From IMG/VR virus record IMGVR_UViG_2541047868_000004: DNA of 39,543 nt. One strand, 5' to 3'. Under the pieces are notes generated by a model that did not search any database, was not told the origin of the DNA, and saw only the letters and a program-made list of their open reading frames with translations. Positions 29,530 through 35,732 of this stretch are shown here, piece by piece; position 1 is the first letter of the stretch, and each line of letters starts with the position of its first letter. The position numbers were made by a program, and so were the translations under genes. The stretch comes from a virus (lineage: Duplodnaviria; Heunggongvirae; Uroviricota; Caudoviricetes).

Positions 29530-30216
29530 ATGGATAAATACGAACAAAGACGACTAAGGCTGATAGAGATAAGAGACCGATTCTGTAATGGAAAGGCCTC
29601 AGAGTTGGCTCGTCGAATAGAAAGGGAACCATCATACGTTTCCAGAATGCTGTATCCGGAAGGAAAAAGCGGAAAAAAACGCATTGCTGACGATATGATG
29701 GAACTAATTGAAAAATCTTTTAATCTCCCACGCGGATGGATGGACATGCTTGCAGATAGCAAAGTTGGATCTGCAGACCATCTTGAGTTTGCGGGTAACG
29801 TTCGTGCGGGTTTTGTTCCGGTAATTGGTGAAGCCGTTTTGGGAGTTGATGGCTCAGTGGATATGATTGAATTCAGATCCGGTTGGTTAAGCATCTACAG
29901 TGGCGATAAAGATGCTTACGGTCTGAAGGTTAAGGGTGACAGCATGTGGCCAAGGATTCAGTCAGGAGAATATGTTGTTATTGAACCAAATACGCCAGTA
30001 CATCCAGGTGATGAAGTCTTTGTAAGGACCAAAGATGGTCATAACATGATAAAGATCATGAACAAAACAAGAGACGGAGACTATCAGTTTAGTAGTATAA
30101 ACAGCGATCACCGTCCAATCACTCTTCCTGTTGAAGAAGTTGATAAAATGCATTTTGTTTCAGCTATTGTGAAACACACTAGGTACGTAGACCAGGACGA
30201 TCTGCCAAAATTTTGA
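29530..30216 (+). CDS. cI: CI-type prophage repressor with C-terminal S24 (LexA-like) autopeptidase domain
   Basis: 228 aa; N-terminal DNA-binding region; C-terminal GDSMWP…K motifs of S24 peptidases. Confidence 0.8.
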   Translation: MDKYEQRRLRLIEIRDRFCNGKASELARRIEREPSYVSRMLYPEGKSGKKRIADDMMELIEKSFNLPRGWMDMLADSKVGSADHLEFAGNVRAGFVPVIGEAVLGVDGSVDMIEFRSGWLSIYSGDKDAYGLKVKGDSMWPRIQSGEYVVIEPNTPVHPGDEVFVRTKDGHNMIKIMNKTRDGDYQFSSINSDHRPITLPVEEVDKMHFVSAIVKHTRYVDQDDLPKF

Positions 30217-30230
30217 GGATAAAGCAGCAA

Positions 30231-30527
30231 ATGTTTATACCAGGTATAGTGGTCGCTGTTGTAATCATCTGCTTCATATGGGCAAAGTTATCTCCTGTAA
30301 GCTCTAAGCATACAGCTGAACTCATGAAGAAGAAGCATCTTATACATGAGGCAGAAACGATAATTAAGAAGTTCAAAGGCATGTCATATGACGACATGTC
30401 ATCAGATCAGATTGCTATGTATAAATGCGCCATTGAGCGTCTTGACTACTTAAACGGACTCAAACCCAAACACACCCCGGTAGAATCAAAATTGCCGCAA
30501 TGGCCAAGCAATCCAAATAGCTTCTGA
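30231..30527 (+). CDS. Small single-pass membrane protein co-transcribed with cI (moron)
   Basis: ATG 30231 with SD GAGGA; N-terminal TMD (FIPGIVVAVVIICFIW); followed by a strong terminator; ORF track starts at a TTG (30213). Confidence 0.55.
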   Translation: MFIPGIVVAVVIICFIWAKLSPVSSKHTAELMKKKHLIHEAETIIKKFKGMSYDDMSSDQIAMYKCAIERLDYLNGLKPKHTPVESKLPQWPSNPNSF

Positions 30528-30537
30528 CATCTCCTTT

Positions 30538-30560
30538 CAGCCCGCAAAGCGGGCTTTTTT
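30538..30560 (+). terminator. Intrinsic terminator after the cI operon
   Basis: AGCCCGCAAAGCGGGCT followed by TTTTTT. Confidence 0.8.
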
Positions 30561-30580: not shown

Positions 30581-30661
30581 TTACCTGAAAATTCAAACAG
30601 GTAAACTCTCACACCAATTTTATTTACCTGCAGGTATAGACAACAGTTTTACCTGTAGGTA
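30581..30661. promoter_or_regulatory. OL operators / pL region
   Basis: Operator-like repeats TTTACCTGCAGGTA (30623..30636) and TTTACCTGTAGGTA (30648..30661), same consensus as OR; TTACCTG…CAGGTAA at 30581..30607. Confidence 0.6.
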
Positions 30662-30705
30662 TATTTTAAGCCATCAGCAGGACGCACTAACCACCATGAA
30701 GGTGA

Positions 30706-30736
30706 TGCTCTTAAAAATTAAGCCCTGAAGAAGGGC
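30706..30736 (+). promoter_or_regulatory. nutL (boxA-like TGCTCTTAA, boxB GCCCTGAAGAAGGGC)
   Basis: Matches lambda nutL as recalled; upstream of N. Confidence 0.8.
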
Positions 30737-30893
30737 AGCATTCAAAGCAGAAGGCTTTGGTGTGTGTGATACGAAACGAAGCATTGGCCGGAAGTGCGAA
30801 TCCGGATTAGCTGCCAATGTGCCATTGCGGGGTGTTTTCGTTCAGGACTACGACTCCCACACACAACCAAAGCTAACTGACAGGAGAATCCAG

Positions 30894-31791
<898 letters not shown>

Positions 31792-31914
31792 TTAAAAGAC
31801 AGGCATACTAATAAACACTGCACTGTGTATTCATTCCAACGAGTGAATACACGGAGCAATGTCGCTCGTAACTAAACAGGAGCCGACTTGTTCTGATTAT
31901 TGGAAATCTTCTTT

Positions 31915-31941
31915 GCCCTCTAATGTGAGGGCGATTTTTTT
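31915..31941 (+). terminator. Intrinsic terminator (tL1-like) in early-left operon
   Basis: GCCCTCTAATGTGAGGGC followed by GATTTTTTT. Confidence 0.75.
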
Positions 31942-31953
31942 GACGGAGGAATT

Positions 31954-32370
31954 ATGGAAATTGCAGATATTCTGGTTAATCCAGATAATTACGACCAATT
32001 CAATATCTCTACTCAATCAGTTGATTTGGGATGTGCAACTGTCAGCGCATGGCTACTTAATGGTAAACAGTTGGATAAATGCCTTGATGCACATATGACG
32101 GTTAACAGCTTCCTTGCAGAAAAAACACACTGGCAAGATGCAGGAGGGAAATATGCTGGATGGCTTGAAAGCATGGGATTTGAATATCAATCTGATGAAG
32201 GTTGGTGGAGCCTTATAGCTGTAACTCCTGAGACAATAGAATGCTTCGTTAAATACTCAAACGACGATGACTATAAACACCAGGTAGACTCTGCGATAGA
32301 AAGATATAAAAGAAAATCATTCAACCACGAAATATCATCAGTTCTTGATTTCATAGAAGTCTTCAAATAA
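31954..32370 (+). CDS. Hypothetical acidic early protein
   Basis: 138 aa; SD GGAGGA upstream; Asp/Glu-rich; first plus-strand gene after tL1-like terminator. Confidence 0.55.
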   Translation: MEIADILVNPDNYDQFNISTQSVDLGCATVSAWLLNGKQLDKCLDAHMTVNSFLAEKTHWQDAGGKYAGWLESMGFEYQSDEGWWSLIAVTPETIECFVKYSNDDDYKHQVDSAIERYKRKSFNHEISSVLDFIEVFK

Positions 32371-32453
32371 GCCGCCAAGCGCGGCTTTACCGCACACCAA
32401 TAACGCTTCACTTGAGGCGTTTTCGTTATGCAATCAAACAGAAGGAGCATCCT

Positions 32454-32624
32454 ATGCAACAGTTCGCTATTGCAGGGGCGGCATCGGTTCGCCCTTTCAA
32501 CCCAATTTTATCGGTGCAGCATTCACGAAAAAATATTTTAACCGGAGCAGACTTTAAACAACCTCGCGTTAAGAGCTTGCTGGATCGTCTTGTTGAGTTT
32601 CTGAATCAAAAGGTACATCCATGA
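32454..32624 (+). CDS. Small hypothetical early protein
   Basis: ORF 32412..32624; likely start ATG 32454 (MQQFAIAG…) with AAGGAG upstream. Confidence 0.4.
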   Translation: MQQFAIAGAASVRPFNPILSVQHSRKNILTGADFKQPRVKSLLDRLVEFLNQKVHP

Positions 32625-32866: not shown

Positions 32867-33178
32867 ATGATGATTCTGACTCTGAATGATAAGCGTGAAA
32901 TATCGCAAATAATCGCAAGTTTTACCGATGATGATTACGAACGAATCAACAGTGAAGTTGATCGTCTCTGCAAACGTTGCGACCCAATAAGCGAAATGCT
33001 TCGCTCATATAAACCAGATGAACACACTAAGGACGCTATCGACTGGCTGGAAGATGATGACTGTAACTATCAGGAAAAAGCCGCTGAATGGTTCTGGGAT
33101 GCAATAACCGAAAGAGTTAAGGCTGAATATGCCTTCGCAATATTCAAACGCAGACACATTTATGGAGAAGCAGCATGA
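32867..33178 (+). CDS. Hypothetical early protein upstream of recT
   Basis: 103 aa; acidic; ATGA coupling to recT. Confidence 0.5.
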   Translation: MMILTLNDKREISQIIASFTDDDYERINSEVDRLCKRCDPISEMLRSYKPDEHTKDAIDWLEDDDCNYQEKAAEWFWDAITERVKAEYAFAIFKRRHIYGEAA

Positions 33179-35337: not shown

Positions 35338-35732
35338 AACAAATGACACTAATTGAGATGGATGGTTTTCTGAAAGGTAAATGCATCCCACGAGATTTAA
35401 AGGTTAACGAAACAAATGCTGAGTATCTGGTGCGTAAATTTGCTGAAGCGGAGGCCAAGTGCGCGGCGCTGGCTGCTGAAGTTGAGGCTGTGAAATCAGC
35501 ACATCAAGATGCTGTAAACACCATCATGTATACCGCCAATCGAACGGGTGTTTTATACACTGAGAAGGCAATTCAAATGTCCTGCAAAACCCCGGCCACC
35601 GACGCTTTCCTGGCTGAAGTACGGGCGCAGGGGGTTGAGATGATGCGCGAACACCCATCAATCAAACTTTGCTCTTTGACGCACATATGTGACGAGTTAG
35701 CCGCCCAGCTTCGCAAAGGAGTTCAGTTATGA
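35334..35732 (+). CDS. Hypothetical early protein, paralog A (shared C-terminal module)
   Basis: ORF 35316..35732; probable start ATG 35334; C-terminal 43 aa nearly identical to gene at 35959..36444. Confidence 0.5.

Follow-up and report, generated by a model that had tools for sequence, protein, structure and literature searches.

ORF138, a 138-codon open reading frame of the pL operon, is a genuine phage gene that belongs to a family found only in phages and sits, as a rare occupant, in a well-defined accessory hot spot. It lies in a 39,543-nucleotide stretch of DNA (IMG/VR record IMGVR_UViG_2541047868_000004; hereafter the window), a P22-like podovirus prophage of Escherichia coli whose nearest relatives are vB_EcoP-720R6, CUS-3 and Kapi1. 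The original prediction had singled out this frame as an acidic early protein, and its status as a real gene is borne out by a GGAGG Shine-Dalgarno sequence, by full-length homologues at 59-100% identity and by strong purifying selection (dN/dS 0.03-0.24 against 22 close alleles). The product is a plausible candidate for counter-defence or host takeover and resembles no known inhibitor; a component of bacterial anti-phage defence would be the single most probable class of target, with a probability that we put at a little under 40%.

Table 1. Features around ORF138 (window coordinates unless a locus is named)
Feature	Position	Strand	Basis or remark
cI-like repressor	29530-30216	+	
104-aa ORF	30213-30527	+	lambda rex position; overlaps stop of cI-like repressor; strong terminator after it, 30539-30555
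pL-like sigma-70 promoter, TAGACA-17-TATATT	30637-30665	+	promoter scan, 10/12 matches
nutL boxB hairpin	30722-30736	+	GCCCTGAAGAAGGGC on + strand; maps to annotated lambda NutL 35518-35534
Lambda-type antiterminator N, 107 aa	30894-31217	+	RefSeq homologues named 'antitermination protein N'
HkaP-like 164-aa ORF	31210-31704	-	convergent with N; lambda sieB position and orientation; RefSeq homologue
PreS/LPR1-like Hfq sRNA, putative	31854-31941 (5' end approximate)	+	3' hairpin and T7 correspond to tL2a; lambda identity, HK620 label, RNA fold
Shine-Dalgarno GGAGG	31945-31949	+	4 nt 5' of ORF138 ATG; read off the sequence
ORF138, PHROG 8967 acidic protein	31954-32370	+	138 codons, ATG start
Inter-cassette linker	32371-32398	+	GCCGCCAAGCGCGGCTTTACCGCACACCAAT; comparison of window, L008 and L058; follows ea10, orf82 and ORF138
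Linker copy, L008	3344-3385		
Linker copy, L058	2950-2985		
tL2b-like terminator hairpin	32402-32421	+	terminator scan; equals the hairpin that HK620 labels tL2B
cIII-like 56-aa ORF	32454-32624	+	MQQFAIAG...SLLDRLVEFLNQ; translation likened by eye to lambda cIII
orf103	32867-33178	+	overlaps RecT start by 4 nt

The pL operon and the tL2a-tL2b slot

Upstream of ORF138, the window carries a pL-like promoter, a lambda nutL boxB and a lambda-type N gene, a block that aligns with lambda 35583-35037 at 96.5% DNA identity. The boxB hairpin was placed on the minus strand by the hairpin scan. ORF138 is the first plus-strand ORF beyond N, and the DNA of the cIII-like ORF that follows it aligns with the cIII region of HK620 and with lambda 33544-33443.

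Two further genes of this neighbourhood were noted. The 104-aa ORF next to the repressor has a hydrophobic N-terminal segment (IPGIVVAVVIICFIW) and matches no family; it is likely a membrane protein expressed in the lysogen. The 164-aa ORF is a homologue of HK620 hkaP, which is annotated as a 'putative superinfection exclusion protein'. It overlaps the 3' end of N by 8 nt and carries a CxxC…CxxC pattern (YLCAQC…RCHRC) in its C-terminal half; searches of Pfam and NCBIfam gave no match to it, and PADLOC gave only a weak one (PDC-M53B, E = 0.012).

The hairpin immediately upstream of ORF138 (31913-31934) has the form TTGCCCTC-TAATGT-GAGGGCGA and is followed by seven T (31935-31941), the last of which is 12 nt before the ATG; 8 terminator-like sites were counted in the surrounding 3.1 kb, where shuffled sequences gave 2.2 +/- 1.5. 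This hairpin had earlier been labelled tL1-like. Its correspondences point elsewhere: lambda 34055-33925, the ral-ea10 intergenic segment, matches window 31810-31940 at 98.5% identity over 131 bp, the GenBank record of HK620 names the same hairpin tL2A and the next one tL2B while placing tL1 within hkaP, and a 2024 preprint on the small RNA PreS describes tL2a as the 3' end of lambda PreS/LPR1. By sequence, the hairpin is accordingly identified as the tL2a of lambda and HK620 and not as tL1, which makes the homologous slot that of lambda ea10, downstream of the ral position. The original prediction was thus right to place the gene in the pL operon, but not to place it after tL1.

According to the same preprint, the lambda segment encodes an Hfq-dependent sRNA (LPR1/PreS) of about 88 nt, processed to about 68 nt, which increases translation of host dnaN and aids phage replication. 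The PreS-like element is nearly invariant among the window, lambda, HK620 and two E. coli prophages, with similarity ending at the T-run, and a 90-nt RNA spanning it is predicted to fold at -30.2 kcal/mol (z = -3.7). No family for the element was found in Rfam. Of 5,426 complete E. coli genomes, 2,177 carry the tL2a module.

Comparison with related loci delimited the cassette precisely. The window matches the locus of E. coli GPEC60 (L001) over 30666-31940 and again from 32371, the base after the ORF138 stop, and homology to lambda also resumes at 32371; where the window has ORF138, the GPEC60 locus carries lambda ea10 (DUF2528). The ORF138 cassette therefore extends exactly from where the tL2a T-run ends (31940) to the stop codon (32371). 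Other occupants were observed at the same site. In HK620 and L005 tL2A adjoins tL2B, leaving an empty slot; L058 and L039 carry ea10 followed by ORF138; and L008 and L027 carry an 82-aa acidic ORF followed by ORF138. The flanks remain 97-99% identical while the content varies from empty to ea10, ORF138 or stacked cassettes. Across E. coli genomes, tL2a-ea10 junctions number 1,463 and empty tL2a-tL2b junctions 1,606, and ORF138 is found in 37 genomes (0.7%). ORF138 is thus a gene of a phage accessory region, carried as a hot-spot cassette.

Every cassette in the slot ends with a common linker (…GCGGCTTTA[A/C]C…CCAAT), part of which forms a 5-bp hairpin, and the linker is likely a recombination joint through which cassettes are stacked or swapped. 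The 82-aa acidic ORF (MIKTDYPAELKQ…EEEIE), located at 3096-3344 in L008 and also present in L027, lies between tL2a and ORF138.

The promoter scan found no promoter-like site in the 12 nt that separate tL2a from the ATG, nor elsewhere upstream short of pL, so that expression of ORF138 should depend on N-mediated readthrough of tL2a. On this view ORF138, a self-contained cassette inserted between tL2a and tL2b of the pL operon, would be a delayed-early accessory gene that depends on N, in an E. coli prophage of the P22-like HK620/CUS-3 type. Judged from this anatomy, it would be transcribed only when N-modified RNA polymerase passes tL2a during lytic growth.

Family distribution, conservation and predicted fold

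In profile searches, ORF138 matched phrog_8967 over its entire length (E = 3.2e-87, residues 1-138 on positions 1-138), a family of unknown function and the sole PHROG matched by its relatives (57 of 57). No match was obtained in Pfam (E up to 10), in NCBIfam, in PADLOC (0 families at E up to 1) or in sequence searches of the PDB with 9- and 57-sequence profiles. The earlier impression that the protein does not match Ral, Gam or Abc is upheld by the Pfam, NCBIfam and PDB searches, which gave no hit to Ral, Gam, Abc2 or Ea10, and the profile searches did not reveal a clear homologue with some unrelated known function either.

Among GenBank phage records, 115 entries contain a homologue, all at 60-80% identity; the genomes among the matches listed are about 130-143 kb, and those inspected are classed as Vequintavirus. 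The PHROG 8967 members bas54_0089 of MaxBurger and bas56_0086 of AlexBoehm share the full length and the conserved core of ORF138. The Vequintavirus copies follow the DNA polymerase gene of a lytic 135-kb myovirus, within a long series of small genes, whereas ORF138 lies in a lambdoid pL operon. An exhaustive HMM search of 1.84 billion representatives yielded 62 relatives, and all ten that were looked up were metagenomic singleton clusters. The distant relatives are found on phage-like contigs amid small early and replication genes; their neighbours are generic genes of these classes, with antirepressor-domain proteins in three contigs, and no consistent partner was found among them. In the plasmid database PLSDB the only match was CP057073.1 (137.6 kb), which resembles a Vequintavirus genome. 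The family is therefore confined to phages and is common to temperate lambdoids and strictly lytic Vequintavirus, and this sharing, together with the absence from real plasmids, suggests that it serves lytic growth.

Several individual records deserve mention. In L015 and L063, two divergent metagenomic contigs, the family gene directly follows a gene whose 307-aa product has a P22 antirepressor domain at its N terminus, and in L021 it is divergent from an antirepressor-type gene (Rha/KilAC). A 114-kb metagenomic phage contig (L006/L007/L043, 6001-6996) encodes a family member with a C-terminal extension of about 190 aa (331 aa in total), flanked by a YqaJ/RecT pair on one side and the gene for an RtcB RNA ligase on the other. 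CP057073.1 is labelled an E. coli 'non-mobilizable plasmid', a label that looks doubtful. Sixteen 'Campylobacter phage' records likewise carry an orthologue, and their host label looks doubtful too; in all these records the identity is that typical of Escherichia Vequintavirus. Two of the sixteen, MG065690 and MG065644 ('Campylobacter phage A135/A147'), are about 143 kb, unannotated and assigned to Campylobacter jejuni as host.

The acidity of ORF138 is real but moderate. The protein contains 23 Asp and Glu residues (16.7%) against 11 Lys and Arg, giving a net charge of -12 and a pI of 4.5; by acidity, ORF138 ranks fifth among the 51 window ORFs of at least 100 aa. A net negative charge is found in all 57 aligned relatives (median pI 4.69). 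The conserved core, at residues 62-99, reads D-W-G-G-x-Y-A-x-W-L…G…[ST]-[DE]-N-G-W-W-S…A-V-x-P-x-N-I…F, with N12 conserved in addition. Conserved positions are mostly aromatic residues or Gly, and no His, Cys, Lys or Arg is among them.

The most acidic window ORF of at least 100 aa is orf103 (23% Asp+Glu), which has no family match. Of the 28 related loci, all 11 with RecT+Gp157 carry it, and among the others a single short locus does; it probably belongs to the recombination module.

Structure prediction improved with the depth of the alignment. With nine close sequences, AlphaFold reached a pLDDT of 65.8, and a Foldseek search of the PDB with this first model was uninformative; with the 57-sequence alignment, pLDDT rose to 95.9 (pTM 0.87). 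The resulting model is built of six helices with short beta bridges, and it places the G…GWWS motif in the long loop that separates helix 63-73 from helix 92-103. Conservation is highest in this Gly/Trp-rich loop, D62-x-G-G-x-Y67...G75...G83-W84-W85-S86...A89...F98. The confident model matched no fold among solved structures. The product is accordingly predicted to be small, soluble, acidic and mostly alpha-helical, with an orphan fold and no enzyme-like signature, and D62, D/E81, N12 and N94 could possibly form a small-ligand or metal site, and hence imply an enzymatic role.

Candidate functions of ORF138

In early infection, the ORF138 product would most likely bind, stoichiometrically, a factor of the host or of a rival element. 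A defence component is favoured as the target because of the location beside Ral, the patchy horizontal distribution across unrelated phages and the conditional dispensability of the family. Loci of the family were retrieved with a DNA pattern drawn up by hand from the conserved core, and 28 lambdoid loci with ORF138 were compared. Ral, which is a proven anti-restriction gene, shares the variable region with ORF138 in 12 of these 28 loci; Kil is present in 13 and an Abc2-like anti-RecBCD gene in 11. Like ORF138, lambda Ral is encoded by a small, non-essential gene in the early-left variable region. The ral gene stands just upstream of PreS/tL2a, and its product differs in being basic (pI 8.8), 66 aa long and unrelated in sequence. 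Because Ral and the Abc2-like genes co-occur with ORF138, the latter is unlikely to be a substitute for either. ORF138 also resembles the accessory-region genes defined by Silas et al. (bioRxiv 10.1101/2023.04.06.535777) in its variable presence between conserved flanks, its proximity to a known counter-defence gene (Ral) and its horizontal sharing among unrelated phages, and it is absent from the 200 accessory genes screened in that study. Literature searched by accession, PHROG identifier and BASEL locus tag did not mention ORF138 or its orthologues.

That the gene lies in a variable region carries little weight as evidence, since ea10, which occupies the slot in lambda itself, is still without a known function. 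Lambda Ea10 (DUF2528, PF10800) shares with ORF138 the tL2a-tL2b slot, a small size (122 aa) and an acidic composition (net -14, pI 4.3); it is N-dependent and non-essential. The two were considered as possible relatives and this was rejected: none of the 57 family members hit PF10800, and the hhalign probability was 0.8% with one sequence and 0.3% with a 25-sequence alignment. Their tandem arrangement in L058 and L039 further indicates that they are not alternatives for one function.

Published data are available for bas54_0089 of the Vequintavirus Bas54 (MaxBurger), a full-length orthologue of 138 aa at 66% identity. In the HIDEN-SEQ preprint (bioRxiv 10.1101/2025.11.20.689424), the phage could do without this gene in E. 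coli K-12, disruptions being recorded at 25 of its 27 TA sites, as befits an accessory gene needed only under certain conditions. It was also undepleted in the clinical isolate CFE311 (log2FC +0.57, q 0.90), which carries DS-28 and Gao_Tmn, and the absence of a defect in this strain counts against a defence target, as does the low dN/dS of ORF138, with no signal of arms-race diversification among the 22 close alleles. In itself, the dispensability of bas54_0089 neither helps nor kills the counter-defence idea. In the Bas54 part of Supplementary file 9 of that preprint, the CFE303 and CFE311 sheets share a command line in which both name the 311 sample, and their values in the comparison with K-12 are identical for the rows bas54_0085-0090; as far as these rows go, the CFE303 table seems to be a duplicate and adds no independent information on bas54_0089.

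A more specific form of the defence-target reading, which we regard as rather unlikely, would make ORF138 the founder of a new orphan-fold counter-defence family of lambdoids and Vequintavirus, in which the invariant Tyr/Trp/Gly loop and the conserved Asp/Asn residues form a pocket that sequesters an immune signalling molecule, in the manner of Tad/Acb-like sponges, or clamps a conserved defence protein.

The strongest competitor, doubtful yet to be taken seriously, is a non-immune modulator of host takeover or housekeeping that favours lytic growth by acting on replication, recombination, transcription, proteolysis or division, like Kil, cIII or PreS. The neighbours of ORF138 are of this kind, with PreS upstream and the cIII-like gene and Kil downstream, and in large phages the copies belong to arrays of small early genes beside those for DnaB, DNA polymerase and methylases. 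A core retained even in very distant phages, together with strong purifying selection, would be easier to explain with a host target that is itself conserved than with an immune target that evolves fast, and the family is dispensable in the laboratory, as are Kil and cIII. However, ORF138 has no similarity to known modulators, and the patchiness seen here (0.7% of E. coli genomes, with distant relatives in singleton metagenomic clusters) would be unusual for a generally useful factor.

An accessory role in recombination, or inhibition of a host nuclease such as RecBCD in the manner of Gam or Abc2, appears improbable. Temperate copies always lie upstream of a single-strand-annealing recombinase module, namely RecT+Gp157 (the window and 10 other loci), ERF (5 loci), a Gp157-containing module (L021) or YqaJ+RecT (L006), and the pL operon of the window has no Gam or Abc2 homologue of its own. 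This adjacency is largely attributable to the fixed gene order of lambdoid phages, and ORF138 occurs independently of recombinase type; moreover, an Abc2-like gene already stands alongside it in 11 of the 28 loci, the copies in Vequintavirus and other large phages have no adjacent recombinase, and neither sequence nor fold resembles solved structures of Gam or RecBCD inhibitors.

We disfavour as very improbable a DNA mimic that counters restriction as Ocr and ArdA do, the mechanism for which the original prediction had proposed computing net charge and a structure. Like T7 Ocr and ArdA, ORF138 is small, acidic and expected to be early, its net negative charge is conserved and Ral lies in the same region. 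Its charge per residue, computed from net charge, is nevertheless only about one third of that of Ocr (-0.087 versus -0.239), conservation is aromatic rather than acidic, the confident model and the sequence show no similarity to any solved structure, and the family is absent from plasmids. Least likely of all is a moron expressed from the prophage to protect the lysogen by superinfection exclusion or defence, to which the low GC content (37.9% for ORF138 DNA versus 46.8% for the whole window) and the flanking terminators would be suited, but which is hard to reconcile with the want of a promoter-like site short of pL, with orthologues in strictly lytic Vequintavirus and with the empty PADLOC search.

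Implications for lambdoid phages and Vequintavirus

Like many early phage genes, ORF138 is so far uncharacterised, and nothing in it would come as a surprise to specialists; it is, however, cleanly delimited. It now has a precise address, the hot spot between tL2a, the terminator of the PreS sRNA, and tL2b, which is the slot of the long-unexplained ea10 and a compact site for mining and testing accessory genes. The main reasons to include ORF138 in anti-defence screening are that every Vequintavirus genome found here has an orthologue and that its fold has no assignment. Should ORF138 prove to neutralise a defence, the anti-defence repertoire would gain a new fold, and the result would bear directly on the Vequintavirus phages, themselves candidates for therapy.
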